Counted from the first letter of the stretch, positions 10,386-43,012 are shown. The stretch is 64,000 nucleotides of DNA from Flexivirga sp. (GCF_051955415.1 NZ_JBQCGS010000071.1:688-64687), one strand, 5' to 3'. Made by a program: numbers and translations. Notes: generated from the sequence alone by a model not told the origin.

Positions 10386-10431
10386 GGTCTCGATACGTCG
10401 CTCGCCTAGCGGCTCGCTCCTACTCGACCGG
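10386..10431 (+). repeat. Dispersed repeat family, copy A (ssb-rpsR spacer)
   Basis: GGTCTCGATACGTCGCTCGCCTAGCGGCTCGCTCCTACTCGACCGG. Near-identical to copy B at 29125. Confidence 0.75.
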
Positions 10432-10436
10432 CATCC

Positions 10437-11021
10437 TCAGAAGGGGGGTTCGTCGTAGGACGGGCCGGTGCTCCAGCCGCCGCCCTGACCACCGGACTGC
10501 GGGGCCTGCTGGCCGCCGCCCTGGCCGCCGGTCGCCCACGGGTCGGACTGCTGTCCGCCACCGAAGCCGCCCTGCTGGCCACCGGAGTTGCCGCCGAAAC
10601 CACCGTTGCCGCCGCCGTTGCCGCCGAAACCGCCACCGGGTCCGCCGCCGCGCTGGGTCTTGTTGACCTTCGCGGTTGCGTAACGCAGGGACGGGCCGAC
10701 CTCGTCGACGTCGAGCTCCATGGTGGTGCGCTTCTGGCCGGTCTCCTTGTCGTCCCACGAACGGGACTTCAGGCGACCGGAGACGATCACCCGTGCGCCA
10801 CGGGTCAGCGACTCGGCGACGTTCTCGGCCGCCTCGCGCCATACCGAGCAGCGCATGAACAGCGTTTCGCCGTCCTTCCACTCATTGGTCTGCCGATCCA
10901 TGTAGCGCGGCGTCGACGCAACGGTGAAGTTGGCGACGGCTGCCCCGGACGGCGTGAACCGCAACTCCGGGTCCTGGGTCAGGTTGCCGATGACTGTGAT
11001 GACGGTGTCGCCTGCGGCCAT
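10437..11021 (-). CDS. ssb: Single-stranded DNA-binding protein
   Basis: OB-fold N-terminus ([27 protein letters not shown]), Gly-rich tail, C-terminal DEPPF. Confidence 0.97.
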
Positions 11022-11050
11022 GTCGGAACTCCCTTGCTAGATGTCGAGCT

Positions 11051-11338
11051 TCAGGCGTCCACGCGCAGCAGCTTGGTGCGCATGATCTGCTCGTTGAGCG
11101 ACAGCTGGCGGTCGAGCTCCTTGGCGGTAGCCGACTCGGCGGTCATCGTCACAACGGCGTAGATGCCCTCGGACTTCTTCTTGATGTCGTAGGCAAGACG
11201 GCGACGACCCCAGATGTCGGTGTTGTCGATCTTGCCGCCTTCGGCGGTCACGACCTTGAGCAACTTGTCCAGCGTGGGCTGGACAACGCGCTCGTCGAGC
11301 TCGGGGTCGATGATGATCATCAATTCGTACTGACGCAT
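11051..11338 (-). CDS. rpsF: 30S ribosomal protein S6
   Basis: [16 protein letters not shown]...[13 protein letters not shown] is a canonical S6. Confidence 0.97.
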
Positions 11339-11340
11339 GC

Positions 11341-11400
11341 GTTAACCCACCTCCTTCGGTCTCAAGCGGTCACGGTCTCTCCGTGACAGGAGGGTTGCAG
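11341..11400 (-). promoter_or_regulatory. Putative rpsF 5' leader structure sequestering the SD
   Basis: The - strand reads AACCCUCCU-GUCACGG-agaga-CCGUGAC-...-AGGAGGUGGGUU. An upstream anti-SD pairs with the AGGAGG of rpsF. Confidence 0.4.
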
Positions 11401-11550
11401 CGTGGCCCGCCCCCGGTCGTCACCGTCTCCGGTGTCTCCCGCGAGTATGCCGCCAGGCTCCGACATACGGATACCTACGGCACGGGCCGGACGCGAGTTT
11501 ATCGGTCAACGACCGTCCGGCGTTAATCGAGATCGCGCGATGCGGCACTC

Positions 11551-11597
11551 GGTCTCGATACACCTCCCCCGCTCCGCTCCTCCGGCACTCGACCAGC
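11551..11597 (+). repeat. Dispersed repeat family, copy D
   Basis: GGTCTCGATACACCTCCCCCGCTCCGCTCCTCCGGCACTCGACCAGC, 13 nt beyond the stop of the GT87-like gene and upstream of rpsF. Confidence 0.7.
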
Positions 11598-11609
11598 GTG
11601 CGCCCAGCT

Positions 11610-12902
11610 TCACCGATCAGCGGGGGTGGCCGGGTCGCGCTCCAGGTCCTGGGAGGTCTCCCAGGAGGCCCAGGCGATCCCGACATACGCGATCAGCCGG
11701 ATCAGCAGGAAGAAGGAGTATGCCGCCGCGGGCAGCGCCTTGGCGGTGTTGCTCGGCCCGGCGATGTACATCCAGGTCATGACGAAGTAGACGATCTCGG
11801 CGCCGGCCCACAGCAGGTGTTCGCGCCAGCGCAGCGCAGCCAGCGCCATCAGCGGCAGCACCCACAAGCAGCTCTGCACCGACATCGACTTGCCGGTGAG
11901 CAGCACGATGACCAGCATCGTCAGCGCCAGCGGCGCGAGCTGGGTGCGCTCGACGGGCCGGCCGGTCAGGTAGACACCGAGCAGGAAGGCGACCACCCAG
12001 CCGAGGACCGCGATGATCGACAGCGACGTCGCCGGCAGCGGATGGTGCGCGGCGGTCAGCAGGTAGCCCGGCGAGCCGTAACCGGCGGCCTGGTGCCACC
12101 AGCCGCGGTATGGCGCCAGCGGATCCCCGCCCCACGCGTACGCCACCCCGAAGCAGACCACGATCGCCGCGGCCGCGCCGGTGAGGCAGCGGGCCAGCGG
12201 GCCGCGGGTGCCGTCGCGCAGCGCGATGAGGGTGATCGCGCCGAGCAGCACCAACGGATTGGTCCGGGCCATGACTGCTGCACCGAGGCAGACGCCGGCG
12301 GCTGCCGGGTGCCGGCGCGCCCAGAGCGCCATACCGACGGTCGCGAGGGCGACGCCCAGCACGTCGAAGGAGACCAGGGCCGCGGTGATCAGCACCGGGC
12401 TGAGCGCCACGTGTGCGGCCAGCCATGGGGTGCTGCGCAGCATCGACGCGGTCGCGATCGTGGTCAGCGCGATCAGCAGCGCGATGATCACGGTGCCGAT
12501 CGCGAAGTAGACCTGCTGGGTGCCCAGCGCGCTGCCGCCCGGAGTCAACTGCTTGACGATCCAGTCCAGGATCGCGGTCAGGACCGGCTGGGTGTTGCCC
12601 GCGCCGCCGGACGACCACGGGGTGCCGCCCTTCGGGCCGCCGGAACCCACCGGCAGGTCCGAGTAGCACGCGTGCCACAGGGCACCCGGTGACCCCCAGC
12701 CCTCGCGCACGCAGTGGTTCTTCTGCAGCACGCCGAGCGCGACCAGCACCGACGCCAGCGCCGACAACATCGCCGCGGCATACGTCCAGCCACGGCGGCC
12801 GATCGCCGCGAAACGACCGACCGGCCCACCGATGATCCCGGTCGCGAGCGCGGCGGGCTCCTCCCCGCGGCTGGGTGAGGTCAGGCGTGTGGGCGAAGGC
12901 AC
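11610..12902 (-). CDS. Polytopic membrane protein, GT87/DUF2029-like glycosyltransferase (Rv0051-like position)
   Basis: 430 aa with more than 10 TM segments. Positioned between ponA and rpsF as in mycobacteria. Family call is from overall pattern only. Confidence 0.7.
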   Translation of the reverse strand: MPSPTRLTSPSRGEEPAALATGIIGGPVGRFAAIGRRGWTYAAAMLSALASVLVALGVLQKNHCVREGWGSPGALWHACYSDLPVGSGGPKGGTPWSSGGAGNTQPVLTAILDWIVKQLTPGGSALGTQQVYFAIGTVIIALLIALTTIATASMLRSTPWLAAHVALSPVLITAALVSFDVLGVALATVGMALWARRHPAAAGVCLGAAVMARTNPLVLLGAITLIALRDGTRGPLARCLTGAAAAIVVCFGVAYAWGGDPLAPYRGWWHQAAGYGSPGYLLTAAHHPLPATSLSIIAVLGWVVAFLLGVYLTGRPVERTQLAPLALTMLVIVLLTGKSMSVQSCLWVLPLMALAALRWREHLLWAGAEIVYFVMTWMYIAGPSNTAKALPAAAYSFFLLIRLIAYVGIAWASWETSQDLERDPATPADR

Positions 12903-12981
12903 GGCGCGAGCCTAACCCGCGATTGTCCCTAACCGGTGCCGGGTAACTCGGCTCGTGCTCGGACCTCCAGGAAGGACGATC

Positions 12982-13386
12982 ATGACCACGAACAGCAACA
13001 CGTTCGACCCCGGATCGCTGCAGGGTGTCGACGTCATGGGCGCCGACGGCAGCAAGCTCGGCACGGTCGACGCCGTCTACCTCGACGACGCCACGTCCCA
13101 GCCGCAGTGGGTGGCGGTCGCGACCGAGGGAGCCGACGACGCCACCATGGTGCCTCTCGCCACCGCGCAGTTCGACGGCGAACGGCTCACCGTGCCGTAT
13201 GACGACCAGCAGCTGCGGGACGCACCACACCACGACCCGTCGGGGCGGCTGACGCCCAAGGACGAGCAGGACCTCTACCGCCACTTCGGCGTCGGCGGCG
13301 ATCGCGAGGACCGCGCGGCACCGTATGTCGTCGAAGACCGCGACAAGGACGACGCGCTCATGCAGGAGCGGCCAGACCCGCAGTGA
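12982..13386 (+). CDS. PRC-barrel domain protein
   Basis: ORF 12955..13386. ATG at 12982 preceded by GGAAGGA. VMGADGSKLGTVDAVYLDDATSQPQWVAV...LTVPY matches the PRC-barrel pattern. Confidence 0.7.
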   Translation: MTTNSNTFDPGSLQGVDVMGADGSKLGTVDAVYLDDATSQPQWVAVATEGADDATMVPLATAQFDGERLTVPYDDQQLRDAPHHDPSGRLTPKDEQDLYRHFGVGGDREDRAAPYVVEDRDKDDALMQERPDPQ

Positions 13387-13401
13387 GCCCAGCCGGGTAA
13401 C

Positions 13402-15744
13402 TCAGCGCGTCGGCTGCGGCTCCGACGACCTCGGCTGACCGCCGCCCTGGGTGACCGGCGGCGGCGGAACCGGCAGCGTCGGCCGGGTCGCCGTCGGACG
13501 TGAGGTCGGACTCGGCGGCTGCGTGGTCGTCGTGGTGGTGGTCGGGCTCGGCGGCTGCGTCGTGCTGGTGGTCGAACTCGACGTGCTGCTGGACGGCGTC
13601 GAACTCGAGCTGGTCGAGCTCGGCGTGGACGACGTCGTCGTGGTGGTGCTGGTCGGCGCCTGGGTGGAGGTGACCGGCGGCGCCGAATACGTCGTGGTCT
13701 GCTTGACCTCCTTCGTCTGCGGCAGCGGGGCGACCTTCTGCCCCTTGAGCGCAGCCTGCATGAAGTCCAGCCAGATGGTGGCCGGCGTGTCGCCGCCGTA
13801 GAACGACGCGTTGTGCGTCGCCTTGTCCAGCCCGATGGTGCCGGCCTGCTTGCCGTTGCCGGCATACATGCCGACCGAGACGGTCAGCTGGTCGGGCGTG
13901 AACCCGGTGAACCACGCCGACAGGTAGTGACTGGACGTGCCGGTCTTGCCGGCGGCCGGCCGGTTCAGCTGACCGGCGGTGTGGTGCGCGGTGCCGTCGG
14001 AGTCCGTCAGCGGGCCGGTCATCCCGTTGACCAGGTTGGCGGCGACGTCCTTGGCGATCGCCTGCTGGGTGTTCGGGTGCGCGTCGTAGCTGTAGTCACC
14101 CGCGACGCTGGTGACCTTCTGGATGAAGTAGGGGTCGGCCTTCTTCCCCTCCGCGCTGATGGTGTTGTAGGCGTTGGCCATGTCGATCACCCGCACGGCC
14201 GCACTGCCCAGGATGTCGGTCGGCACCGGGTCGTTCATGCCCGGGGAGCTCTGCGGTATGCCGAGCTGCTGCGCGGCGGCCAGCGTCTTGCCGGTGCCGA
14301 GCGCCTGGTTGAGCCGCACGAACGCCGTGTTGGACGACACCGCGAAGGCGCGCTCGAGGGTGAGCATCCCGAACTGCTCGTGGTTGTCGTTGTAGATCTT
14401 GGTCGTCTTGCCGTTGCCGCGGTGCAGGATCAGCGGCGACGCACCGCTGAACTTGGTCTGCATCGTCATACCGTCCTGCAATGCCGCGGCCAACCCGAAC
14501 GCCTTGAAGCTCGAACCGCCTTGCAGCTGTGCATCGTTCGCGGCGCTGATCTCCTTGGCCGCGTCCTCGCCGCCATACATCGCCACGACCGCACCGTCCG
14601 GCTGCTCGGCGACCAGCCCGGTGTGCAATGCGTCCAGCCGGGCGGTCTGGCTCGGGACGTTCCGGTGGACGGCGTCGACGGCCGCTTTCTGGGAGTTCTT
14701 GTCGATGGTCGTGGTGATGCGCAGCCCGCCCCGGTCGATGTCCTCGTGGGTCAGCTTCAGCTTGTGCTGCAGCTCCGACCGCACGGCCGACACGATGTAG
14801 CCGTTCGGGCCGGAGACCTGCTGCGCGTTGGGGTTGTACTTCTTGAAGTCCGGCATGTGCGCCTTGGCGCGCTGCGCCGGCGTCATCCAGCCCTCCTTGA
14901 CCATGCCGTCCAGCACGTAGGTCATCCGGGCGTTGGCGCGCGCCTTGGCGTCCGCGCCGTACTGCGGGTCGTACAGGCCCGGCGCGTTGATCACCGAGGC
15001 GAGGAACGCGCCCTGGCTGGCGTCCAGCTTGCTGACGTCGACGCCGAAGTAGGCCTGCGACGCTGCCTGTATGCCGTAGGCACCGCGCCCGAAGTAGATG
15101 TTGTTCAGGTAGGCCTGCAGGATGTCGTCCTTGGACATCTTCCGGTCGATCTTCAGCGCGATCATGATCTCCTTGACCTTGCGCTTGACCGACCGGTCCT
15201 GGGTCAGGAAGTAGTTCTTGACGTATTGCTGGGTGATCGTCGAGCCGCCCTGCTCCTGCCCGCCGGACAGCGTGCTCCAGGCGGCGCGGATGGTGCCGCT
15301 GATCGAGACGCCGGAGTTCTTGTAGAAGTTGCGGTCCTCGGCGGCCAGGAATTCGTAGCGGACCGTCTTGGGCACCTGGGCCAGCTTGACGTCCTCGCGG
15401 TTGACCGTGCTGAACCGGCCGAGCTCGGTCTTCCCGTCGCTGTAGTAGACGATCGAGACCTGCTTCGCGGCGTCGGCCTGCGGCTGCGGGATGGGCGTAC
15501 GCAGGTAGATGATGACCAGTGCGACGACCCCGATCAGACCCAGCAGGACGAAGCCCAGCACGGTCCGCCAGAAGACCTTGAAGAACAATCCGTGCTCTTT
15601 CTTCGGGCGCTTCCTGCGGCCCGGCACCGGTCGCGCTGCGGCGCGACGAGGCGCCCCACCCTGCTCATCTGTCACCGGTGCAGGGTAACTGCCGAAGCAG
15701 TGAACCGGGAATCGTGAAGGCCGCTGCACCCATCGACCCGCCAT
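13402..15744 (-). CDS. ponA: Class A penicillin-binding protein (transglycosylase/transpeptidase) with S/T/P-rich tail
   Basis: GT51 motifs (EDRNFYKNSGVS, GGSTITQQYVKN), transpeptidase SSFK and KTGTS. C-terminal about 100 aa are Ser/Thr/Pro-rich. Start uncertain: ATG 15744 or GTG 15675. Confidence 0.92.
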   Translation of the reverse strand: MAGRWVQRPSRFPVHCFGSYPAPVTDEQGGAPRRAAARPVPGRRKRPKKEHGLFFKVFWRTVLGFVLLGLIGVVALVIIYLRTPIPQPQADAAKQVSIVYYSDGKTELGRFSTVNREDVKLAQVPKTVRYEFLAAEDRNFYKNSGVSISGTIRAAWSTLSGGQEQGGSTITQQYVKNYFLTQDRSVKRKVKEIMIALKIDRKMSKDDILQAYLNNIYFGRGAYGIQAASQAYFGVDVSKLDASQGAFLASVINAPGLYDPQYGADAKARANARMTYVLDGMVKEGWMTPAQRAKAHMPDFKKYNPNAQQVSGPNGYIVSAVRSELQHKLKLTHEDIDRGGLRITTTIDKNSQKAAVDAVHRNVPSQTARLDALHTGLVAEQPDGAVVAMYGGEDAAKEISAANDAQLQGGSSFKAFGLAAALQDGMTMQTKFSGASPLILHRGNGKTTKIYNDNHEQFGMLTLERAFAVSSNTAFVRLNQALGTGKTLAAAQQLGIPQSSPGMNDPVPTDILGSAAVRVIDMANAYNTISAEGKKADPYFIQKVTSVAGDYSYDAHPNTQQAIAKDVAANLVNGMTGPLTDSDGTAHHTAGQLNRPAAGKTGTSSHYLSAWFTGFTPDQLTVSVGMYAGNGKQAGTIGLDKATHNASFYGGDTPATIWLDFMQAALKGQKVAPLPQTKEVKQTTTYSAPPVTSTQAPTSTTTTTSSTPSSTSSSSTPSSSTSSSTTSTTQPPSPTTTTTTTQPPSPTSRPTATRPTLPVPPPPVTQGGGQPRSSEPQPTR

Positions 15745-15750
15745 ACAACG

Positions 15751-15775
15751 CCGATGTATCGGTTCGATACATCGG
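15751..15775. promoter_or_regulatory. Perfect 11-3-11 palindrome in ponA/PadR divergent region
   Basis: CCGATGTATCG-gtt-CGATACATCGG, about 70-90 nt upstream of the PadR ATG and just upstream of ponA. Confidence 0.6.
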
Positions 15776-15843
15776 ATGCGCTATGCTCGTGGTCACACCC
15801 CCCGCATCCGCAGGATCCACCGACAGCACCGAGGAGGTCGCCC

Positions 15844-16512: not shown

Positions 16513-16515
16513 GAA

Positions 16516-17607: not shown

Positions 17608-17647
17608 CCTGACCCTCTCGCCGAGAGGACAGGAAACATACTGAGAG

Positions 17648-17690: not shown

Positions 17691-17719
17691 CGGCATTTAG
17701 GTGTCCTCTCGGCGAGAAG

Positions 17720-22129: not shown

Positions 22130-23053
22130 TCAGGCGTCCGCGCGCAGCTCGTGCGCCAGCTCGGCCAGCTCGTCGCCGCCGGCCATCTGCTCGGTCAGCT
22201 GCTCGACGGTGATGTCGTCGCGGGAGGCGTCCAGCGCCATCTCGCCCAGTTTGAGGATGACGAAGTGGTCGCCCACCAGGAAGGCGTGGTGGGGATTGTG
22301 CGTGATGAAGACGACGCCTAGGCCGGACTCGGCGGCGCGGGCGACATACTTCAGCACCACGCCCGACTGCTTCACACCGAGCGCGGCCGTCGGCTCGTCC
22401 AGGATCAGCACCTTCGCGCCGAAGTAGATGGCCCGAGCGATGGCCACACACTGCCGCTGGCCACCGCTGAGCGAGCCCACCGGACGGTCCACATCCGGCA
22501 GGTCGATGCCCATCTTGGCCAGCTCGTCGCGGGTGATCTGCTTCATCCGGGCCGAGTCCAGCAGCCGCAGCGGACCCTTGCGCAGCTCGTGGGCGAGGAA
22601 GAAGTTGCGCCATACCGACATCAGCGGCGCGAGCGCCAGATCCTGGTAGACCGTCGCGATGCCCGCCTCGACGGCCTCCCGGGGGCTGCCGAACTTCCGC
22701 GGCGTGCCCTCCACCAGCATGGTGCCGGACGTGTGCTCGTGCAGCCCGGCCATGATCTTGATCAGCGTCGACTTGCCGGCACCGTTGTCGCCCAGCACGC
22801 AGGTCACCTCGCCGGCGCGCACCGCCAGGTCGATGCCGGTCAGCGCGCGCACGGTGCCGTAGGTCTTGCCGACGCCCTGAAGCTGTATGACGGGAGCGGT
22901 CTCGTCCGGTTCGGTGGTCTCGATACGCGGCTCGTCCCTCGCCGCTACTCGACCAGCGAGCTCATCGTCCCTCGCCGCTACTCGACCAGCTTGGTCGTCC
23001 GAGGTCTCGATACGCTCGTTCCTCGCTACTCGACCAGCTTTTGGCTCACTCAT
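22130..23053 (-). CDS. Sugar ABC transporter ATP-binding protein with repeat-encoded N-terminal extension
   Basis: Walker A GDNGAGKST, signature LSGGQRQ, Walker B ILILDEPT. Start ATG 23053 overlaps the permease stop (ATGA). The first ~57 codons are encoded by the repeat cluster at 22916-23038. Confidence 0.9.
   Translation of the reverse strand: MSEPKAGRVARNERIETSDDQAGRVAARDDELAGRVAARDEPRIETTEPDETAPVIQLQGVGKTYGTVRALTGIDLAVRAGEVTCVLGDNGAGKSTLIKIMAGLHEHTSGTMLVEGTPRKFGSPREAVEAGIATVYQDLALAPLMSVWRNFFLAHELRKGPLRLLDSARMKQITRDELAKMGIDLPDVDRPVGSLSGGQRQCVAIARAIYFGAKVLILDEPTAALGVKQSGVVLKYVARAAESGLGVVFITHNPHHAFLVGDHFVILKLGEMALDASRDDITVEQLTEQMAGGDELAELAHELRADA
22916..23038 (+). repeat. Dispersed repeat family, cluster C (three units, one 5'-truncated)
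   Basis: Units at 22916-22957, 22958-22990 and 23003-23038. An exact 26-nt stretch TCGTCCCTCGCCGCTACTCGACCAGC recurs 33 nt apart. Confidence 0.8.
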
Positions 23054-29050: not shown

Positions 29051-30667
29051 GTGACCATTACTACCAAGTCTCGCCGCACCGCGGCGGGCACAACCAACAA
29101 CAACTCGGCATCAGAAAACGGTCGGGTCTCGATACGTGCTCGCCTAGCGGCTCGCCCCACTCGACCAGCGACCGGCGGCGAGGCCAAGCGCCTGGTGCTG
29201 ACGGCCGTGCTCGTCACCCAGCTGATGCTGGTGCTCGACGCCGCGATCGTGAACATCGCCCTGCCGGACATCGGCTCCGAACTGCACATGAGCTCCACCT
29301 CGCTGTCGTGGATCGTCAACGCCTACACGCTCGCCTTCGGCGGCCTCCTGCTGCTGGGCGCCCGCGCCGGCGACCTGGTCGGGCGGCGCGTCACCTTCCT
29401 CGCCGGTATGGCGGTCTTCGTCGCCGCTTCGTTCGCCGGCGGCCTCTCCCAGGGGGAGGCACTGCTGCTGGCCTCGCGGGCCCTGCAGGGTGCCGGCGCG
29501 GCCTTCGCCGCACCGTCCGCCCTCGCCATCCTGATGTCCCTCTACAAACCCGGCGCCGAGCAGACCCGCGCCATCGGCTGGTACACCGTCGTCTCCGCCT
29601 CCGGCGCCGCCACCGGGCTGCTCGCCGGCGGCATCCTGACCTCGGTCGCGTCCTGGCGCTGGGTCTTCTTCGTCAACGTCCCGATCGGTGTGGCCGTGCT
29701 GGTCGCGGGCTTCCGGGCGCTCTCCCGGGAGAAGGGCGCCCCGGGATCCGCGAGCGCACCGGGCAGGGGATCGGTCGACGTGACCGGTGCGCTGCTGGTC
29801 ACCGTCGGCATGACGTCCGTCGTCTACGGATTCATCCGGGCCGCGTCCGACGGCTGGACCGACGGCGGCACGCTCGCCGCATTCGGGCTGGGCCTGGTGC
29901 TGCTGGCCATCTTCGTCGCGGTCGAGTTGCGGGCAGCGGCGCCGGTGATGCCGCTGCGGCTCTTCGCCGACCGGGATCGGGCCACGGCATACCTGGCCCG
30001 GCTGATGCTGGTGGCGGGCTCGCTCGGGTCGTTCTTCTTCATGAGCCAGTACATGCAGATCGTGCTCGGCTGGACGCCGTGGCAGTCCGGGGTGGCATTC
30101 CTGCCCTTCCCGGTGACGATCTTCATCAGCTCGCAACTGGTGGCCCGGGTCATCTCCAACCACTACTCGACCAAGGCGATCGCCGCCGTCGGCACCCTGC
30201 TGTCGACCATCGGCATGCTGATGCTGACGACGCTGACCGAGCACACCTCCTATCTGCAGATGCTGCCGGCGTTCGTCGTCTTCGCCCTCGGCAACGGCAT
30301 CGCGTTCGTGCCGCTGACCACGGCCGGGCTGTCCCGGGTGGAGCCGTCCGACACCTCGGTCGCCTCGGGCCTGGTCAACGTCACCCAGCAGTTGGGCGGC
30401 GCGCTCGGACTCGCGGTGCTGGTGACGGTCTTCGCCACGGCCGGCAAGGACCCGGCGGTCGCGCCCGGCGCGAGCCAGCACGCCATACACACCTTCGTGA
30501 CCGGCGCGGATCGCGGATTCCAGGTCGGCGGCGTGATGCTCTTCATCGCCTTCGCGCTGGTGATGCTGGTGATGCGGCGCCCGTCGAAGGACGCGGCGTC
30601 CCGCGACACGGCAGCGCCGGTGGAGCAGCTGCGCGACACCGAGGAGATCGCCCTGGAGGTCGGGTGA
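29051..30667 (+). CDS. MFS transporter, DHA2 (EmrB/QacA, 14-TM) family
   Basis: LDAAIVNIALPDI, WIVNAYTLAFGGLLLLGARAGDLVGRR, about 14 TM. The GTG start at 29051 puts repeat copy B in frame. A later GTG (near 29195) would place it in the leader. Confidence 0.85.
   Translation: MTITTKSRRTAAGTTNNNSASENGRVSIRARLAARPTRPATGGEAKRLVLTAVLVTQLMLVLDAAIVNIALPDIGSELHMSSTSLSWIVNAYTLAFGGLLLLGARAGDLVGRRVTFLAGMAVFVAASFAGGLSQGEALLLASRALQGAGAAFAAPSALAILMSLYKPGAEQTRAIGWYTVVSASGAATGLLAGGILTSVASWRWVFFVNVPIGVAVLVAGFRALSREKGAPGSASAPGRGSVDVTGALLVTVGMTSVVYGFIRAASDGWTDGGTLAAFGLGLVLLAIFVAVELRAAAPVMPLRLFADRDRATAYLARLMLVAGSLGSFFFMSQYMQIVLGWTPWQSGVAFLPFPVTIFISSQLVARVISNHYSTKAIAAVGTLLSTIGMLMLTTLTEHTSYLQMLPAFVVFALGNGIAFVPLTTAGLSRVEPSDTSVASGLVNVTQQLGGALGLAVLVTVFATAGKDPAVAPGASQHAIHTFVTGADRGFQVGGVMLFIAFALVMLVMRRPSKDAASRDTAAPVEQLRDTEEIALEVG
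29125..29169 (+). repeat. Dispersed repeat family, copy B
   Basis: GGTCTCGATACGTGCTCGCCTAGCGGCTCGCCCCACTCGACCAGC. Confidence 0.75.
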
Positions 30668-35304: not shown

Positions 35305-35387
35305 GGCAGAGCTCCTCCCTGGTGGCCTGGTCCTCATGCGCAGGTCGTCGGTCCACGAAAGATCCTGCAGCGGGCGATCCCGCCGGG

Positions 35388-36647: not shown

Positions 36648-36695
36648 ACATTTCGGTGCAGCGCTTCACGATTCACCCGGGGCAAGCTGAGACCA

Positions 36696-37556: not shown

Positions 37557-37557
37557 C

Positions 37558-38436
37558 GTGACAGAGCTGACGAGGGACGCGGCGATGGCGGAGGCCGAGC
37601 AGATCACCCGCACCGAGGCGCGCAACTTCTACTACGGCATCCGGTTGTTGCCCACGCCCAAGCGGCAGGGCCTGTGCGCGCTCTACGCGCTGGCCCGCCG
37701 CATCGACGACATCGGCGACGACGACGCACCCGTGGAGACCAAACGTGCTTCGTTGGCACTGGTGCGCAAACAGCTGTCCGACATCGACGCTTCCACCGAT
37801 CCCGTCATGGCGGCGGTCGCCCAGACGGCACGCCGTTTCCCGGTGCCGCTGGAAGCCTTCGAGGAGTTGCTGGACGGCGTCGAGATGGACCTGAGCGGCG
37901 CGACCTACGAAACCTTCGAGGACCTGCGGCTCTACTGCCGATGCGTCGCCGGGTCGATCGGCCGGCTGTGCCTGTCGATCTTCGGCAACGGCACGGCCCG
38001 CACCGATCCACGGGCCCCGCTCTTCGCCGACCAGCTCGGGATCGCGTTGCAGCAGACCAACATCCTGCGTGACATCCGTGAGGACCTGCTGATCGGCCGG
38101 GTCTACCTGCCGCGCGAGGAGCTGGAGCGCTTCGGCGTCCGGCTGCAACTGGACGACACCGGCGCGCTGCACGACCCGGACGCGCGACTGGCGGCATACA
38201 TCTGCTTCGCCGCGGACCGCGCGCAGGCCTGGTACGACCTCGGGTTGCGGTTGCTGCCGCAACTGGACCACCGCAGCACCGCGTGCTGTGCGGCGATGGC
38301 CGGCATCTATCACCACCTGCTGCTGCGCATCCGCGACAACCCGACGGCCGTCTACGAACGCCGAATGTCGTTGCCGCCGCACGAGAAGGGCCGTGTCGCA
38401 CTGATGTCGCTCGTCAAGGCGGTGTTGCCGGTATGA
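37558..38436 (+). CDS. hpnD: Presqualene diphosphate synthase HpnD
   Basis: GTG 37558 with GGGGAGG 7 nt upstream. RNFYYGIRLLP...YALARRIDDIGDD...RVYLPREE. Confidence 0.85.
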   Translation: MTELTRDAAMAEAEQITRTEARNFYYGIRLLPTPKRQGLCALYALARRIDDIGDDDAPVETKRASLALVRKQLSDIDASTDPVMAAVAQTARRFPVPLEAFEELLDGVEMDLSGATYETFEDLRLYCRCVAGSIGRLCLSIFGNGTARTDPRAPLFADQLGIALQQTNILRDIREDLLIGRVYLPREELERFGVRLQLDDTGALHDPDARLAAYICFAADRAQAWYDLGLRLLPQLDHRSTACCAAMAGIYHHLLLRIRDNPTAVYERRMSLPPHEKGRVALMSLVKAVLPV

Positions 38437-40907
38437 CGCACTCCGCACTCCCTGCCGCACGCCGGGCCGTCTGTGTCATCGGCGGGGGCCTCGCCGGGAT
38501 CACCGCGGCACTGGACCTGGCCGACCGTGGCCTGGAGGTCACCCTGCTGGAGTCACGGGCCCGCCTCGGCGGCCTGACGCACTCCTTCCGCCGCGGAGAA
38601 CTGTGGGTGGACGGCGGCCAGCACGTGTTCCTGCGGTGCTGCACGTCCTACCTCGGCCTGCTCGACCGGCTCGGCGTGCGACACCTGACCTACCTGCAGG
38701 AGCGCCTCGACGTACCCATCGCCAGCGAACGATCCGCCGACCGGACCCTCCTGCGCCGCAACGACCTGCCCGCCCCGCTGCACCTGAGCGCGGCCTTGCT
38801 CCGACACCGCTGGATGCCGCTGCGGCAACGACTGGCCGTCGGTCGCGTCGCACTGGCTCTCGGCCGGCTGGACCCCGCCGACCCGCAGGTCGACGCCCAG
38901 AGCTTCGGCGGGTGGCTGCGGCAGCACGGCGCCGACGACCGGTCGATCGAGGTGCTCTGGGAGCTGATCGGCAAAGCCACGCTCAACGCCGACGCGGACC
39001 GCTGCTCACTGGCGCTGGCAGCGACCGTCTTCCAGCTCGGCATGCTCGCCGACAAGGGCGCCGCGGACATCGGATGGTCCCGTGTCCCGTTGCAGCAGTT
39101 GCACGGGGACGCCGCCGACCGCGCCCTGGCGGAGGCCGGCTGCACGGTGCGGCTACGCAGCAAGGTCAGCGCGGTGGTGCCCGGCGACACGGGCGTCCGG
39201 GTGGTCGCCCACGCGGGCGAGGAGACGTATGACGCCGTGGTGCTCGCCGTCCCGCCAGCCGCATTGGAGCGGATGATCGACCCGATCGCGCTCGGGCTGC
39301 CCGCCGACCTGGCCGACGGCCTCGGTGTCTCCCCGATCGTCAACGTGCACGTGGTGTTGGACCGGCCGGTGCTGGACACGGATTTCGTTGCCGCGGTGGA
39401 CAGTCCATTGCAATGGGTCTTCGACCGCAGCGCCGCCGCCGGGATCCAGGACCGGCGCCAGTGTCTCGCGGTCTCGGTCTCGGCCGCCGACGAACTCATC
39501 GGGATGACAGCCGCGCAACTACGGGACTGGGCACTGCCGCACCTTTGCGACCTGCTGCCGGGCATGGCCGGCGCGCAGGTGCTGGACTTCTTCGTGACGC
39601 GGGAGCCGGAGGCGACCTTCCGCGCGGCGCCGGGAAGCGCTCGGCTGCGGCCGGGCGCGGCGACCAGTCGGCCGGGTGTCGCCCTGGCCGGTGCGTGGAC
39701 CGACACCGGCTGGCCGGCCACGATGGAGGGCGCGGTCCGCAGCGGGCACGCGGCCGCCACCGTGCTCCTTGCGGGTCTGCCGGCCGATCTACCGGCCAGT
39801 CTGCCGGCCCGGTCGACCCGGCACTCGGTCGGCGGCTCGACGCCGGCGGTCCGGCGCTCGGCCGCTGATCCCGTCCCGGCACCGGCGGACCGTGACGACG
39901 GTCCACGGGTGCTGCTGCACGCGCAGGAGTTGACCCAGACGTTGGTGACTCCGGCACTGCGCAAGGCGGTGGACACCCTCGACGGGCTCGAACACCTGGT
40001 GGTCGCCTACCACCTCGGCTTCGTGGACAAGCGCGGCAACCCGGTCCGCGAGGACGGCGGCAAGAAGTTGCGCCCGATGCTGGCGCTGCTGGCGGCGCAG
40101 GCGGTCCGTGCCGACCCGGCGCAGGCGGTCAGCGGCGCGGCGGCGCTGGAGCTGCTGCACAACTTCTCGCTCGTGCACGACGACATCATGGATCGCGACC
40201 GCACCCGCCGGCATCGTGAGACGGTCTGGTCGGTCTGGGACGAAGCGACCGCGATCCTCGGCGGTGACGCGATGCACGCCCTCGCCTTCGAGACCGTGCT
40301 GGCCGACCCCGGACCACACGCCGCGGAGGCCGGACACCTGCTCGCCGCCACCACCCGCGACCTCATCCGCGGACAGATCCTCGACATGGGATTCGAGCAA
40401 CGCCACACGGTTTCACTGGGCGAATGCCGCGCCATGGCCGCTGCCAAGACCGGTGCGCTGCTGCGCTGCAGCACCGAACTGCCGGCGGTGCTGCTGGGCG
40501 CCTCCCACGACCAGCGCACGGCGCTGGCGACATACGGCCGGGCGGTCGGGGATGCCTTCCAACTGGTCGACGACCTCCTCGGGATCTGGGGAGTGCCGAG
40601 CGTCACCGGCAAGTCCAACCACTCCGACCTGCGCGCCAAGAAGCGGTCGCTGCCGGTCACCTGGGCACTGGAGCAGCCCGGACAGCGGGCACTCGCCGCG
40701 TGGGTCGACTCCGGCGAGCCGACCGACTCCGAAGTCGCCCGCATCGCAACGCAATTGGACCAGCTCGGTGCCAGACAGTGGTGCCGGGAGAGCGCCGACG
40801 CAGCCATCTGCGAAGCCGTCGACGCGCTGCACCGGGCCGATCTCGACGAGACGGCCGTCACCGGACTGACCGAGGTGGCGCACTACGTCGCCGGAAGGGA
40901 CATGTGA
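38433..40907 (+). CDS. hpnE: Fusion: HpnE (FAD-dependent hydroxysqualene dehydroxylase) + polyprenyl diphosphate synthase
   Basis: ATGA overlap with hpnD. N-terminal VCVIGGGLAGITAALDLA... to ...WPATMEGAVRSGHAAA. About 60-aa linker, then KKLRPML, LVHDDIMD and FQLVDDLLG motifs. No stop between the parts. Confidence 0.8.
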   Translation: MTHSALPAARRAVCVIGGGLAGITAALDLADRGLEVTLLESRARLGGLTHSFRRGELWVDGGQHVFLRCCTSYLGLLDRLGVRHLTYLQERLDVPIASERSADRTLLRRNDLPAPLHLSAALLRHRWMPLRQRLAVGRVALALGRLDPADPQVDAQSFGGWLRQHGADDRSIEVLWELIGKATLNADADRCSLALAATVFQLGMLADKGAADIGWSRVPLQQLHGDAADRALAEAGCTVRLRSKVSAVVPGDTGVRVVAHAGEETYDAVVLAVPPAALERMIDPIALGLPADLADGLGVSPIVNVHVVLDRPVLDTDFVAAVDSPLQWVFDRSAAAGIQDRRQCLAVSVSAADELIGMTAAQLRDWALPHLCDLLPGMAGAQVLDFFVTREPEATFRAAPGSARLRPGAATSRPGVALAGAWTDTGWPATMEGAVRSGHAAATVLLAGLPADLPASLPARSTRHSVGGSTPAVRRSAADPVPAPADRDDGPRVLLHAQELTQTLVTPALRKAVDTLDGLEHLVVAYHLGFVDKRGNPVREDGGKKLRPMLALLAAQAVRADPAQAVSGAAALELLHNFSLVHDDIMDRDRTRRHRETVWSVWDEATAILGGDAMHALAFETVLADPGPHAAEAGHLLAATTRDLIRGQILDMGFEQRHTVSLGECRAMAAAKTGALLRCSTELPAVLLGASHDQRTALATYGRAVGDAFQLVDDLLGIWGVPSVTGKSNHSDLRAKKRSLPVTWALEQPGQRALAAWVDSGEPTDSEVARIATQLDQLGARQWCRESADAAICEAVDALHRADLDETAVTGLTEVAHYVAGRDM

Positions 40908-40920
40908 GTGAGCACCCCAC

Positions 40921-40965
40921 CAAGTCTTCCCTGCTTCGCTCCTCCGATACTTCGCGAGGACCCCG
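40921..40965 (+). repeat. Dispersed repeat family, degenerate copy F
   Basis: CAAGTCTTCCCTGCTTCGCTCCTCCGATACTTCGCGAGGACCCCG aligns with part of copy E (41633-41676). Confidence 0.5.
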
Positions 40966-40966
40966 C

Positions 40967-43012
40967 ATGACGCAGGTCTCCACACGCTCATCGACCGGCA
41001 CTTCGACCGATCCCATGGCCGCCAGGGCCCGCGAGACGCTGGAGCGCGCCACCCGACGGCTGCTCGAGCTGCAGCTGCCCAGCGGCGCCTGGAAGGGCGA
41101 GCTGGAGACCAACGTCACCATGGACGCCGAAGACATGATGCTGCGTGTCTTCCTCGGCATCGACACCGCCGAGACCCGCGAGCAGACCGCCCGGTGGATC
41201 CGCAGCCGGCAGCGCGCGGACGGCACCTGGGCGACCTTCGCCGGCGGACCGGCGGACCTGTCCACCACGGTCGAGGCCTGGATCGCCTTACGGATGGCGG
41301 GCGACAAACCAGGCGCCGAGCACATGGCCGCCGCGCGTGAATTCGTCCTGTCCCAGGGCGGTCTGCAGCAGACCCGGGTGTTCACCCGGATCTGGTGCGC
41401 CCTCTTCGGCTGGTGGGACTGGGCGGACCTGCCCGCCATGCCGCCGGAGTTGATGTATCTGGGCAAACATGTCCCGCTCAACATCTACGACTGGGGCTGC
41501 TGGGCGCGCCAGACCATCGTGCCGCTGACCATCGTGTGCACCCTGCGACCGAAGCGACGGATGAAGTGGGATCTGTCGGAGATCACCTGCACGCCCACCG
41601 GCGAACCAACTGCATCTCGGTCTCGGTCTCGACACATGCTTCCCCGCTCCGCTCCGCGGAATACGTCGCGGGGCCCCGAGCCCGCTCCTCGCGACAATCG
41701 ACCGGCGAGCCTTTTCAGCGGCCTGGACAAGGCCCTGCACGCCTACCATCGGCACGCGGTCGGACCGGTCCGCCGCAACGCCCTGCGCCGGGCAGCGGAG
41801 TGGATCATCGCGCGGCAGGAGGCCGATGGCGGCTGGGGCGGCATCCAGCCGCCGTGGGTCTACTCGATCCTCGCGCTGCACGCCCTGGGCTACCCACTGG
41901 ACCATCCCGTGCTGCGCGCGGGCATCGAGGGTCTCGAGGGGTTCGTCATCACCGAGGACACCGCGGACGGTCCGGTGCGCCGGCTGGAGGCCTGCCAGTC
42001 GCCGGTCTGGGACACCGGTCTGGCGATCAACGCACTGCTCGACGCCGGTGTGGATCCTCGTGATCCGGCCTTGCGCCGCGCCGCGGACTGGCTGATGCAG
42101 GAGCAGATCACCGTGCCCGGCGACTGGACGGTGCGGCACCCCAAGCTGCCGCCCGGCGGCTGGGCCTTCGAATACGCCAACGACAACTATCCGGACACTG
42201 ACGACAGCGCCGTGATCGTCATGGGCCTGCGCCGCGTGATCACCACCCACGGTCCGTTGCACGAACAGGCGGTGTCCCGTGGCATCGCCTGGACGGCGGG
42301 CATGCAGTCCAAGGACGGAGGCTGGGGCGCCTTCGACATCGACAACACCAGCAAGTGGCCCGCGAAGCTGCCGTTCTGCGACTTCGGTGCCGTCACCGAC
42401 CCGCCGTCCGCCGACGTCACGGCCCACGTCGTGGAAATGCTTGCTGCGGTGGGCCGTTCGCGGGGTGCGCGGTGTCAGCGCGGTGTGCAGTGGCTGCTGG
42501 ACCACCAGGAGCCGGACGGGTCCTGGTTCGGCCGGTGGGGCGCCCACCACATCTACGGCACCGGGGCGGTGGTGCCCGCGCTCGTGGCAGCCGGTGTCTC
42601 CCCGGCGGCGGGACCGATCCGCTCGGCGGTCCGCTGGCTGGAGACCCACCAGAACGCCGACGGCGGCTGGGGCGAGGACCTGCGATCGTATGACGACCCG
42701 GCCTGGATCGGACGCGGTGAGTCGACGCCGTCGCAGACCGCCTGGGCGCTGATGGCCCTGGTGGCCGCCGGTGAACTCGGCGAAAGCCTCCAACGCGGCA
42801 TCGACTACCTCGCCGAAACACAACTCCCGGAAGGTGATTGGACCGAAGACCGATTCACCGGCACCGGTTTCCCCGGCGACTTCTACATCGCCTACCACCT
42901 CTACCGGCTCATCTTCCCCGTCTGGGCGCTCGGCCGCGCGGTCCGGGCCATGAGCCAGATCGATCAGGGTGACCGCCCCGATCTCGGTCTCGTCGCGAAG
43001 GTCGCGACATGA
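40967..43012 (+). CDS. shc: Squalene-hopene cyclase
   Basis: ORF 40424..43012. QW repeats, DxDD-type motif (YPDTDDSAV), GGWGA/GSWFGRWG. ATG 40967 is preceded by GAGGA. Alternative GTG 40904 overlaps the upstream stop (GTGA). Confidence 0.9.
   Translation: MTQVSTRSSTGTSTDPMAARARETLERATRRLLELQLPSGAWKGELETNVTMDAEDMMLRVFLGIDTAETREQTARWIRSRQRADGTWATFAGGPADLSTTVEAWIALRMAGDKPGAEHMAAAREFVLSQGGLQQTRVFTRIWCALFGWWDWADLPAMPPELMYLGKHVPLNIYDWGCWARQTIVPLTIVCTLRPKRRMKWDLSEITCTPTGEPTASRSRSRHMLPRSAPRNTSRGPEPAPRDNRPASLFSGLDKALHAYHRHAVGPVRRNALRRAAEWIIARQEADGGWGGIQPPWVYSILALHALGYPLDHPVLRAGIEGLEGFVITEDTADGPVRRLEACQSPVWDTGLAINALLDAGVDPRDPALRRAADWLMQEQITVPGDWTVRHPKLPPGGWAFEYANDNYPDTDDSAVIVMGLRRVITTHGPLHEQAVSRGIAWTAGMQSKDGGWGAFDIDNTSKWPAKLPFCDFGAVTDPPSADVTAHVVEMLAAVGRSRGARCQRGVQWLLDHQEPDGSWFGRWGAHHIYGTGAVVPALVAAGVSPAAGPIRSAVRWLETHQNADGGWGEDLRSYDDPAWIGRGESTPSQTAWALMALVAAGELGESLQRGIDYLAETQLPEGDWTEDRFTGTGFPGDFYIAYHLYRLIFPVWALGRAVRAMSQIDQGDRPDLGLVAKVAT
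41612..41710 (+). repeat. Dispersed repeat family, copy E (two degenerate units) inside shc
   Basis: GCATCTCGGTCTCGGTCTCGACACATGCTTCCCCGCTCCGCTCCGCGGAATACGTCGCGG...GCTCCTCGCGACAATCGACCGGCGAGC. Encodes ASRSRSRHMLPRSAPRNTSRGPEPAPRDNRPAS. Confidence 0.6.

Follow-up and report, generated by a model that had tools for sequence, protein, structure and literature searches.

Repeats in a Flexivirga genomic region belong to a small hairpin element that is probably mobile and resembles the REP/BIME repeats of Escherichia coli

The repeats scattered along a 64-kb stretch of Flexivirga lutea DNA (the whole stretch analysed, hereafter the window) are true copies of a small hairpin element that resembles the REP/BIME repeats of E. 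coli and is probably mobile. The six window copies supported by a covariance model (CM) fit the pattern GGTCTCGATAC-[variable]-ACTCGACCAGC. Read on the + strand, the element, ~30-60 nt in size, comprises GGTC, the 5' half of an outer helix, followed by an invariant loop strand (TCGATAC) and a variable GC-rich hairpin enclosed between G and C; on the 3' side of the hairpin come a second invariant loop strand (TACTC), the 3' half of the outer helix (GACC), AGC, and a purine-rich tail. The opposite strand, GCTGGTCGA-GTAG-hairpin-CGTATCGAGACC, forms a palindrome headed by GTAG, as REPs do. Twenty-two flanking bases, which we call the clamp, recur unchanged in many Actinobacteria, Chloroflexi, and Armatimonadota. 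On balance, we favour the view that the element is a small non-autonomous palindromic repeat of the REP/BIME (REPIN) kind.

The CM was built solely from copies in other genomes and run with filters off. Its six matches in the window all lie on the + strand (Table 1), and the best match beyond them reached 13.6 bits (E 0.26). Exact GGTCTCGATAC boxes occur at 10386, 11551, 22916, 23003, and 29125, all on the + strand, and exact ACTCGACCAGC boxes at 11587, 22947, 22980, 23028, and 29159, whereas by our own arithmetic ~0.03 exact 11-mer matches are expected by chance per 128 kb of both strands. These boxes and the CM hits confirm as a genuine family what an initial annotation of the window had described as a dispersed repeat family occupying operon spacers and, in frame, the interior of genes, and the contexts of copies A to D are those that it gave. 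Four of its six loci (10386, 11551, 22916-23038, and 29125) are firm, but those at 40.9 and 41.6 kb are weak, decayed remnants, the first of them missed by the CM, whose nearest match lies at 40975-40999 (10.5 bits, E 1.8). Likewise, two of the three units that it counted in the ATPase gene hold (22916-22957 and 23003-23038), but the one between them carries the 3' box only. The copy at 58943 lies outside the range that it covered.

Table 1. Copies and remnants of the element in the window
Feature	Position	Strand	Support	Structure	Context
Copy A	10386..10432	+	CM 30.1 bits, E 1e-5	interior GTCGCTCGCCTAGCGGCTCGCTCCT; stem degenerate; 1 mismatch in 3' box, boxes otherwise intact	ssb-rpsR spacer, 4 nt past ssb stop
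Copy B (B-type)	11551..11597	+	CM 31.3 bits; nhmmer E 2.9e-15	interior ACCTCCCCCGCTCCGCTCCTCCGGC; stem absent	12 nt past stop of membrane-protein gene (11610..12902, - strand); 213 nt upstream of rpsF
Copy C1	22916..22957	+	CM 52.1 bits	4-bp stem GCGG/CCGC; fold z -1.6	in frame, N-terminal tail of sugar ABC transporter ATPase (22130..23053, - strand); peptide AGRVAARDEPRIET
Half unit C2	22958..22990	+		3' half of stem and ACTCGACCAGC box only	in frame, same ATPase tail; peptide AGRVAARDDEL
Copy C3	23003..23038	+	CM 58.8 bits	minimal interior GCTCGTTCCTCGC	in frame, same ATPase tail; peptide AGRVARNERIET
Copy D	29125..29169	+	CM 33.3 bits	interior resembles copy A	15 codons in frame, N-terminal tail of MFS transporter (29051..30667, + strand)
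Weak remnant	40926..40951	+	nhmmer E 0.009, 12.3 bits	resembles B-type interior, without boxes	60-nt spacer between stop of hpnE-polyprenyl synthase fusion (40907) and shc start (40967)
Decayed B-type copy	41625..41706	+	nhmmer 41625-41656, E 0.013	boxes with 1 and 2 mismatches, 82 nt apart	in frame, surface loop of squalene-hopene cyclase (SHC)
New copy	58943..58978	+	CM 27.5 bits, E 5e-5	GGTCTCGAGCTGCTGCTTCGTCGCTCCTCGATCAGC	between convergent genes; 5-nt overlap with 3' end of ORF 58974..60116 (- strand)

Taken alone, the 3' box (CTCGACCAGC, Leu-Asp-Gln) turns up often in GC-rich coding sequences (CDS), with 90 matches against 33 expected at ≤2 mismatches; orphan 3' boxes are numerous, and the locus at 40921-40965 is equally weak. 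Such similarities could arise with no element at all, from codon usage, low complexity, or conserved peptide linkers in GC-rich CDS, but we give this explanation hardly any credence, given the correctly spaced pairs of exact 11-mers, CM E-values down to 1e-13, the predominance of intergenic copies, the same clamp in three phyla, and the lack of the corresponding peptide segments in orthologues. For the six model-supported copies it is already refuted.

The element folds as a clamp plus a hairpin, and both helices covary. The outer helix (4 bp, GGTC/GACC) shows compensatory changes from G-C to A-T: among 301 copies (878 kb of loci), its second pair is G-C in 253 and A-T in 39, and its fourth C-G in 284 and T-A in 14. 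An invariant internal loop encloses the variable hairpin, where covariation is strong, with 1172 Watson-Crick pairs versus 57 non-pairs. In the model-fitted alignment, 96.8% of the cells pair, as opposed to 14-54% in slid-alignment controls, and 125 cells are compensatory versus 37 in shuffles, none of 500 shuffles reaching 125. About 85% of the 301 copies have the GTAG head (its T), and 115 of 116 the closing C. The initial annotation had seen no convincing terminal inverted repeat or hairpin and had on that ground set classical REP and MITE aside; the lack of a hairpin fits most window copies, whose stems are degenerate, but not the family as a whole. Among the six window copies, a clear stem survives only at 22916-22957, and copy A folds as RNA no better than shuffles; canonical copies fold with z ~ -2.3. 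We propose that the window copies are mostly old or stem-poor variants with an intact clamp. Stemless Flexivirga variants (B-type and A/D type) occupy several unrelated sites, near-identical B-type interiors being found elsewhere in F. alba, F. endophytica, F. caeni, and a Flexivirga MAG, which suggests that the hairpin may be dispensable for spread. The interior of copy C3 is identical to those of copies at two Microterricola loci, and tandem half-unit arrays like C2 occur at four other loci. Purines prevail in the 3' flank: one occupies +1 in 91% of the copies, and the richness in G/A extends to +4. G and T are abundant in the 5' flank. Direct repeats of 2-5 bp flanking the copies never exceed chance at any offset. 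With a terminal inverted repeat of only 4 bp (GGTC/GACC) and no target-site duplication, the element does not belong to the MITE class.

A scan beyond the window yielded further copies in many genera of three phyla, where the element occupies non-orthologous sites. The exact-pattern scan of the sequence collection returned at least 120 loci spanning Gordonia, Flexivirga, Nocardioidaceae, Microbacteriaceae, Intrasporangiaceae, Chloroflexota, and Armatimonadota. Among the matches listed, Rathayibacter accounts for 21, other Microbacteriaceae for 28, Gordonia for 16, Propionibacteriales for 18, Chloroflexota for 19, and Armatimonadota for 2, with no loci from Streptomyces or Mycobacterium; as far as sequence matches tell, the distribution is patchy. 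Copy counts range from 6-8 in the 64-kb window up to ~10 in single 8-kb loci. Rfam 15 gave no match in the window at the gathering score and, in 16 loci rich in canonical copies, a single one, to the unrelated L17 leader; the E-value mode added only far-sub-threshold matches to miRNA, CRISPR, and one sRNA model. A full-text literature search with the box sequences retrieved unrelated papers only and no description of the element, in agreement with the earlier remark that no described family was known.

The element accumulates in insertion-tolerant places, namely 3' intergenic regions (especially convergent ones), operon spacers, disordered tails, and surface loops. Among 226 classified copies, 194 are intergenic, 19 lie inside CDS, and 13 overlap CDS. 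Convergent spacers represent 25% of the intergenic bases and hold 40% of the copies; occupancy is 40% for convergent, 20% for co-directional, and 11% for divergent spacers. Copies are enriched just past stop codons, many of them beginning 4-20 nt after one, and they occur in ribosomal-protein operon spacers in three lineages.

Copy number changes by tandem duplication and orientation flips in place between related species. At one Rathayibacter site there are three copies in one locus (L060) and five in another (L089), a Gordonia dimer is inverted between species, and the ATPase tail contains from zero to three units across Flexivirga. In orthologous DNA of the MFS tail, copy D is absent from F. 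alba and the Flexivirga MAG and survives as a remnant in strain B27. This is the one usable case of a filled versus an empty site, no clean pair with exact junctions having been obtained, and the empty site bears a GGTCGACC-like palindrome, so that homology-driven insertion is also compatible. In the SHC loop, Flexivirga sp. B27 has an intact copy, and F. alba and a Logan assembly have inverted ones, the F. alba copy being opposite in orientation to those of F. lutea and B27 at the same chromosomal site; the loop lacks the insertion in F. endophytica and in the other 13 aligned insertion-free orthologues. Judging from the aligned orthologues, as the initial annotation had proposed to do, the in-frame copies of the ABC ATPase, MFS, and SHC genes are lineage-specific insertions and not ancestral linkers, since the segments are missing outside a few Flexivirga species. 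That the copies bring in no stop means little: of the six frames across the boxes, five are open, and the sixth (CTG GTC GAG TAG) terminates the upstream gene at seven loci elsewhere.

The element forms inverted dimers and alternating arrays: neighbours at most 200 nt apart comprise 123 inverted and 16 direct pairs, with gap sizes peaking at ~10, 20, 30, and 49 nt, and one locus contains an alternating array with nine exact matches and a repeated spacer. These arrangements are seen family-wide, not within the window, where the single orientation reported for all copies is indeed true. The six model-supported copies and both weak remnants lie on the + strand, which is C-rich (lagging) along the whole window, with rpsF-ssb-rpsR-rplI-dnaB on the other strand. 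This arrangement recalls a replication-oriented polar sequence, either a strand-specific chromosomal signal or an element whose insertion depends on the lagging-strand template, with one orientation per replichore. We consider this highly improbable, since the pattern was spotted post hoc and involves five firm independent loci, or seven with the weak ones (two-sided p 0.06-0.016, own arithmetic), and does not extend to the family. Besides the dominance of inverted neighbours, copies are split 149 versus 152 relative to local GC skew (a noisy proxy over 8 kb), both strands are used within single 8-kb loci, F. endophytica carries an inverted pair, two F. alba loci 90 kb apart on one contig (L010 and L055) have opposite orientations, and the SHC-loop copy is flipped between F. 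alba and F. lutea. The absence of strand preference is as expected of a DNA-level element.

The invariance of loop and clamp across phyla, the covariation of both helices, the many copies that closely follow a stop codon or supply one themselves, and the occupation of convergent and ribosomal-protein operon spacers would also suit a cis-acting structured RNA. [quoted passage not shown] TRIT offers a precedent for a conserved hairpin at actinobacterial gene ends: found at gene ends in Mycobacterium, to which it is reportedly restricted, it was read as a terminator, its authors suggesting a protein factor (PMC3152330). TRIT, a high-copy motif, and the element are both conserved actinobacterial palindromes located tightly at or over stops, largely bidirectional, and without a classical U-tail (PMC3152330), but TRIT was taken as a terminator whereas the present findings favour a DNA-level repeat. 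The GCUGG... strand folds on average ~2 kcal/mol better and is richer in G.U pairs, the surplus lying in the constant part; in the variable stem, however, G:T and A:C mismatches are equally frequent (14 versus 12). On the GCUGG...GAGACC strand, the loop can be drawn as a kink-turn-like motif, with tandem G.A pairs beside a 3-nt bulge, but the drawing is our own and, because the loop never varies, lies beyond the covariation test. Orientation relative to transcription shows no preference (43 sense versus 55 antisense copies in co-directional spacers), and the arrangement at rpsM is opposite in two loci (L011 and L022). Inverted dimers, arrays, and in-place inversion are behaviours of DNA; copies also sit within coding regions and co-transcribed operons, most window copies fold no better than shuffles, and Rfam has no match. 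Unlike an intrinsic (Rho-independent) terminator, neither strand has a U-tract or T run beside the copies; mycobacterial RNA polymerase requires a U-tract at such terminators (PMC3993855).

If the element is indeed of the REP/BIME kind, the invariant clamp would be recognised by a trans-acting enzyme, possibly a RAYT/IS200-like HUH transposase or another recombinase, that cleaves and joins the folded single strand. This would explain an identical clamp while the hairpin drifts and compensates, and effects on host mRNA (a 3'-end hairpin, a supplied stop codon) would be by-products. No transposase or RAYT was found near the copies in 131 loci (~1 Mb of flanks), where the only recurring protein family was an ordinary ABC ATPase. 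ORFs bracketed by inverted copies encode rpsM, an HNH protein, and an Ada-like protein. The element lacks a replication-strand bias of the type reported for IS200/IS605-type elements. Moreover, since classical REPs are species- or genus-specific, a clamp identical across phyla could mean a conserved host function instead. More tentatively, a putative enzyme spreading horizontally among scattered Actinomycetota, Chloroflexota, and Armatimonadota might recognise the 22-nt clamp and mobilise and flip the hairpins, in a REPIN-like manner outside Proteobacteria where the flanks, not the stem, are specific; it would thereby remodel proteins, inserting short disordered segments in tails and surface loops, and supply stops.

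REP/REPIN elements and their RAYT partners have been studied mostly in Proteobacteria. Like them, the element is a short GC-rich stem-loop palindrome with GTAG at the stem foot on one strand, mostly extragenic, with sub-families distinguished by complementary stem changes; inverted dimers prevail, with 'GTAG outside' the commonest form, clusters of two sub-types alternate in orientation, and head-to-tail pairs are few (PMC3733652). Unlike REPs, what is conserved is the flanking clamp (22 nt plus the closing G-C) and not the stem, and three phyla share one and the same clamp, while REP families are specific at levels from species to order; further differences are the lack of an identified RAYT near the copies and the frequency of in-frame protein copies. 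The survey of GTAG repeats by Di Nocera et al. (2013) covers Proteobacteria, Cyanobacteria, Chloroflexi, and PVC, and does not list Actinobacteria (PMC3733652).

The initial annotation had pointed to two other analogies. Rickettsia palindromic elements (RPEs) are ~100-150 bp long, confined to Rickettsia, and inserted in frame at tolerant CDS sites. The comparison is apt for in-frame insertion at such sites, which adds peptide segments that orthologues lack, but the sequence is unrelated, the size (30-60 nt) and taxa differ, and CDS copies are a minority here (~10-14%), so that this behaviour alone is shared and the element is not an RPE. Mycobacterial MIRUs follow the orientation of their operon, have small ORFs that overlap the adjacent genes, and lack a clamp-plus-hairpin architecture. 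The likeness extends to operon spacers, copy number changing by tandem duplication, and ends that may overlap the upstream stop, but not to the unrelated sequence or to the mixed orientation relative to co-directional genes, which, with no Mycobacterium among the matches listed, sets the element apart from MIRUs.

If this reading is correct, the element would represent a REP-like family across phyla, with a clamp identical base for base in Actinomycetota, Chloroflexota, and Armatimonadota. An identical clamp around a varying hairpin would then imply a conserved or horizontally shared, as yet unnamed recognition machinery, which could be traced by comparing the phylogenetic distribution of the element with that of genes. 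For protein evolution, the SHC loop, the ABC ATPase tail, and a phage portal-like protein clearly illustrate, outside Rickettsia, how palindromic repeats become inserted in frame in enzymes. In genome annotation, the element yields spurious ORFs and N-terminal extensions ('AGRVAARDEPRIET', 'VSIR...LLDQ', 'GLDT...YSTSG') and supplies stop codons. As copy number differs between close relatives, it could also serve as a typing marker.

The very small nested dispersed repeats of cyanobacteria that Elhai et al. are said to have described in 2008 reportedly form hairpins and insert into one another and into conserved sequence. Their sequences and taxa differ from those of the clamp-hairpin element, and we know of no established mechanism for either. 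A comparable nesting is seen in Anaerolineales (Chloroflexi), where the element lies at the centre of a different repeat family (GATTGCTTCG...CTCGCAATGAC).

The two conserved 11-mers that bound the ~45-nt repeat described in the initial annotation are real. The window contains five exact matches to the 5' box GGTCTCGATAC (10386, 11551, 22916, 23003 and 29125, each on the + strand) and five to the 3' box ACTCGACCAGC (11587, 22947, 22980, 23028 and 29159), plus a further 3'-box match with one mismatch at 10422. By our own arithmetic, an exact 11-mer is expected ~0.03 times on both strands of 64 kb, so these counts lie far beyond chance. R1, a covariance model of the invariant 22-nt clamp (the two boxes) and the variable hairpin that it flanks, recovers with filters off all five complete units at 30-59 bits, always on the + strand, and a sixth copy (see the table); beyond these six, no match in the window exceeds 14 bits. 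The repeat had been reported at six loci, among which the five complete units stand, whereas 40921-40965 was missed by R1, and there and at 41.6 kb a profile of the B-type, a stemless Flexivirga variant, gave marginal matches only (40926-40951, E 0.009; 41625-41656, E 0.013), which we treat as decayed remnants.

Copies of the element and derived features (L numbers designate loci with copies gathered from other genomes and viral contigs)
Feature	Location	Strand	Basis or details
Complete unit	window 10386-10432	+	box pairing; R1; CTCG-motif loop
Complete unit	window 11551-11597	+	box pairing; R1; B-type
Complete unit	window 22916-22957	+	box pairing; R1
Half unit, half-unit array	window 22958-22990		box pairing
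Complete unit	window 23003-23038	+	box pairing; R1; CTCG-motif loop
Complete unit	window 29125-29169	+	box pairing; R1; CTCG-motif loop
Degenerate candidate unit	window 41625-41706		box pairing
Sixth R1 copy	window 58943-58978	+	27.5 bits, E 5e-5
Predicted ATPase-tail in-frame peptide			AGRVAARDEPRIET
Predicted MFS-tail in-frame peptide			VSIRARLAARPTRPA
B-type copy	L122 7662-7824		
B-type copy	L004 1941-1987		
B-type copy	L124 7637-7684		
B-type copy	L137		SHC loop
CTCG-motif loop	L011 5238-5282		
CTCG-motif loop	L012 7650-7693		
CTCG-motif loop	L049 4741-4837		
Half-unit array	L021 ~2200-2460		
Half-unit array	L029 ~3030-3090		
Half-unit array	L040 ~400-510		
Half-unit array	L132 ~1370-1470		

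With at most two mismatches tolerated per box, the loci (878 kb in total) yielded 301 copies. Their boxes enclose a GC-rich hairpin whose sequence varies between copies (e.g. GCCCC-TGC-GGGGC, GCGCC-TGC-GGCGC and GTCCCGAT-TTTA-TCGGGAC), and its variable stem comprises 1172 Watson-Crick pairs, 14 G:T, 12 A:C and 31 others, the wobble pairs showing no strand asymmetry. Box position 2 and its partner are G-C in 253 copies, A-T in 39 and otherwise in 9, G->A being matched by C->T, and position 4 and its partner are C-G in 284 and T-A in 14, C->T being matched by G->A. Because these positions covary with their partners, the outer helix is GGTC/GACC; a TCGA/TCGA pairing of the boxes, favoured by RNAfold in GATC variants, was ruled out by the covariation in favour of GGTC/GACC. 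R1 yields 238 matches in 100 loci; 96.8% of the cells in its alignment, which is fitted to the model, are paired, and independent pair counts over the 301 copies agree. This alignment contains 125 compensatory double-change cells, whereas shuffles have 37 and none of 500 attains 125; slid controls pair at 14-54%. The element is GGTC, TCGATAC, G-[hairpin]-C, TACTC, GACC and AGC, then purines (base +1 is a purine in 91% of copies), and its opposite strand reads GCTGGTCGA-GTAG-[hairpin]-CGTATCGAGACC. Many hairpin loops share a recurrent CTCG...CTCG motif, the two CTCG being 3-8 nt apart and the loops identical across genera (CTCGTTCCTCG, CTCGTCCCTCG, CTCGCCTAGCGGCTCG, CTCGCTGGCGCTCG and CTCGCAAGCTCG); both boxes too contain CTCG. 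That no hairpin had been seen at first is explained by the poor folding of the window copies: 22916-22957 is the sole one with a clear stem (fold z -1.6) and the others fold no better than shuffles, canonical copies of other genera reaching z ~ -2.3. The earlier impression is thus correct for most window copies but not for the family, which has a covarying hairpin.

An exact scan for GGTCTCGATAC-N(8-38)-ACTCGACCAGC, with one genome per species, gave at least 120 loci. Among the matches listed are 21 loci from Rathayibacter, 28 from other Microbacteriaceae, 18 from Nocardioidaceae/Propionibacteriales, 16 from Gordonia, 4 from Flexivirga, 3 from Intrasporangiaceae, 9 from unclassified Actinomycetota, 19 from Chloroflexota (Anaerolineales and Dehalococcoidia) and 2 from Armatimonadota; since none of the matches listed comes from Streptomyces or Mycobacterium, the distribution is wide yet patchy. 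A viral reservoir was rejected, with just 11 matching stretches in 2.9 million viral contigs, and plasmids provided a single match, on a Rathayibacter plasmid. One viral contig (L135, IMGVR_UViG_3300026516_000003) encodes at ~3060-5730 a phage portal/head-morphogenesis-like protein containing GLDGLDTAAAAYSTSGGAAAAYSTSGGEGKPG, the in-frame translation of element copies, and five related viral contigs have its gene set in common, with the element present in each. The initial annotation knew of no described actinobacterial family with this sequence, and we likewise found none in Rfam 15 or in the searchable full text, which covers the literature partially. Rfam returned nothing relevant (gathering threshold on the window and 16 loci; E-value mode on two arrays), the box sequences retrieved from full-text literature only primers and unrelated papers, and literature searches gave no match for REP/RAYT in Actinobacteria and nothing relevant for broader repeat and taxon terms.

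The placement of copies was surveyed in high-GC loci with our own crude GC3-based gene caller, which gave a CDS fraction of 0.77 and therefore missed genes; on these calls, 194 copies fall between genes, 19 within ORFs and 13 across an ORF end. The flanking genes of the intergenic copies are convergent in 77 cases, co-directional in 98 (43 sense, 55 antisense) and divergent in 19. Convergent spacers hold 40% of copies versus 25% of intergenic bases, and spacer occupancy is 40% for convergent, 20% for co-directional and 11% for divergent genes. Many copies, including those at 10386 and 11551 in the window, start 4-20 nt 3' of a stop codon, and at seven loci the stop of the upstream gene is exactly the TAG of GCTGGTCGAG-TAG. 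In the main rival explanation, the element would act as RNA at the 3' ends of mRNAs, like TRIT (PMC3152330); this reading is weakened by an orientation that is not biased relative to transcription and by behaviour at the DNA level, including inversion and alternating arrays. No T-run was found 3' of the copies in either orientation. The window spans the rpsF-ssb-rpsR-rplI-dnaB region, where copies bracket rpsF-ssb (10386-11597); rpsM is bracketed in Nocardioides (L011 4663-5282) and in a Microbacteriaceae MAG (L022 1900-2926), in opposite arrangements. Ribosomal-protein operon spacers appear to be repeatedly occupied in distant lineages.

The single chromosomal orientation claimed for all copies holds within the window but not across the family. 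The + strand of the window is C-rich throughout, therefore the lagging strand, and bears the element at every independent locus (5 firm ones, 7 once the remnants are added). The two-sided p for this post hoc pattern is 0.06 to 0.016. In the family as a whole, by contrast, local GC skew reveals no replication-strand bias (149 vs 152), an inverted pair is present in F. endophytica, the F. alba chromosome has opposite orientations at two loci separated by 90 kb, and neighbouring copies at most 200 nt apart are inverted in 123 cases versus direct in 16. The preferred gaps between neighbours are ~10 nt in one arrangement and ~20, 30 and 49 nt in the other. An Aeromicrobium locus (L075) carries, directly 3' of a stop codon, an array of alternating copies (nine exact matches) with a repeated 48-nt spacer, and in Rathayibacter two sub-types alternate, with GATC/GATC versus GGTC/GACC outer helices. 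At one site, two Rathayibacter strains have 3 and 5 copies, the difference being a dimer unit, and two Gordonia species possess the same dimer between the same flanking genes, inverted relative to each other. Aligned PBP-upstream spacers differ in copy number and offer no clean empty-site junctions; neither target-site duplication nor extended flank pairing was found. Orphan boxes are more often 3' (118) than 5' (33), many of the former being chance Leu-Asp-Gln codons. The interior of the Flexivirga-specific B-type, ACCTCCCCCGCTNCGCTCCTCCGGC, is stemless, and its opposite strand is purine-rich with two GGAGG motifs; it recurs almost unchanged at unrelated sites in five species, so this stemless form seems to spread or be maintained.

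Several loci contain half-unit tandem arrays with a period of ~30-35 nt, made of spacer, 3' stem half and ACTCGACCAGC box without the 5' box. In Anaerolineales MAGs, the clamp element is found mid-way in a second repeat family (L009 95-150, L042 1057-1100 and L003 2928-2961) with flanks GAGATTGCTTCG...CTCGCAATGAC or ATGTCATTACGAG...TTGCAATGACAT, and a miniature clamp, GGTCTCGAAAAACACTCGACC, forms the L042 'hairpin', repeats being nested in repeats.

For the copies inside genes, ancestral linkers had been considered as the alternative to insertion, and comparison of ATPase, MFS and squalene-hopene cyclase (SHC) orthologues shows, by the test that the initial annotation had itself set, that they are insertions. 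In F. lutea (the window species), F. alba and Flexivirga sp. B27, the start codon of the ABC ATPase and the stop codon of the permease overlap as ATGA. The tail next to this start contains units derived from the element, AGRVA[A]RDEPRIET or parts of it, which vary in number among four Flexivirga genomes and are absent from an 88%-identical metagenomic homologue and from all other genera. Given the conserved start MTITTKSR, the copy at 29125 lies in the N-terminal tail of the MFS protein, where 15 codons are missing in F. alba and a Flexivirga MAG and a remnant persists in B27. The empty site is GGTCGACC or a close variant, a hint that palindromes of this kind may be insertion targets. SHC orthologues that lack an insertion (F. 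endophytica and 13 more in the alignment) have a short loop (...DELR-TG...); the loop contains an intact B-type copy in sense orientation in B27, a decayed copy oriented likewise in F. lutea and, in F. alba and a Logan assembly, oppositely oriented B-type copies together with a second copy. These aligned loops show that orientation varies at one fixed chromosomal site.

Structure, distribution, organisation and turnover of the element are matters of observation; as for how it works, we file it by analogy as REP/REPIN-like because its traits combine as in the summary of REP, BIME and REPIN traits by Di Nocera et al. (PMC3733652). Like these repeats, it is a GTAG-headed GC-rich palindrome, extragenic with a 3'-end preference, with sub-families that differ by complementary stem changes and a predominance of inverted dimers and alternating clusters, head-to-tail pairs being few. 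In contrast with them, it conserves a 22-nt clamp rather than the stem, this clamp is identical across three phyla, and neither a RAYT nor another such enzyme was seen near its copies. Membership of the REP/REPIN superfamily is thus supported by four structural features, the defining enzyme not being among them. Actinobacteria are not among the phyla listed with GTAG repeats in the Di Nocera survey (PMC3733652), and the 2025 RepRanger paper includes three Actinomycetota genomes in a table, the passages of it considered here being without such a sequence. In a REP/REPIN-like mechanism, a putative trans-acting enzyme would bind folded single-stranded DNA, recognising the clamp, and would move or flip the element; this would keep the clamp invariant, whereas the hairpin would need only to pair. 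Against it stand the lack of exact junctions, of an enzyme near copies and of replication-strand bias, and the occurrence of stemless Flexivirga variants at several unrelated sites.

Neighbour-gene enrichment brought out no transposase: only ABC ATPases recur near copies, together with phage genes common to the five viral contigs. ORFs between inverted copies, considered as RAYT candidates, corresponded to rpsM, an HNH/DUF222-like protein and an Ada-like protein, and no convincing candidate emerged for a long autonomous element bounded by both boxes. In Rathayibacter sp. VKM Ac-2857 (L036 1780-3211), a DUF222/13E12-repeat-type HNH endonuclease, identified by eye from motifs, is flanked by two inverted copies separated by 1.4 kb; no other nuclease was seen adjoining copies, and its position is probably coincidental. 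Integron attC sites, hammerhead, hairpin, twister and pistol ribozymes, CRISPR repeats, tRNA-like minihelices and parS/dif/KOPS-type sites were considered and dropped for want of a sequence match.

The region has other features. Between the MatE gene and rplI, a 53-nt tandem repeat unrelated to the clamp element (9402-9540; 2.6 copies, 80% matches; unit CCCAACCAGCGACCGTTGCCGGTTATGCACCGGTCCCGGCCCGCGAAAGCACC) holds in its unit a small inverted repeat, GCCGGT...ACCGGT. The dnaB gene (window 55-2991, - strand; L001 18243-20585) contains an intein with a LAGLIDADG homing-endonuclease domain (Pfam matches). Directly 5' of shc, a single 874-aa ORF (38283-40907) combines amine-oxidase/HpnE-like and polyprenyl synthase domains; the gene calls of F. 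endophytica, B27 and F. alba include the same fusion.
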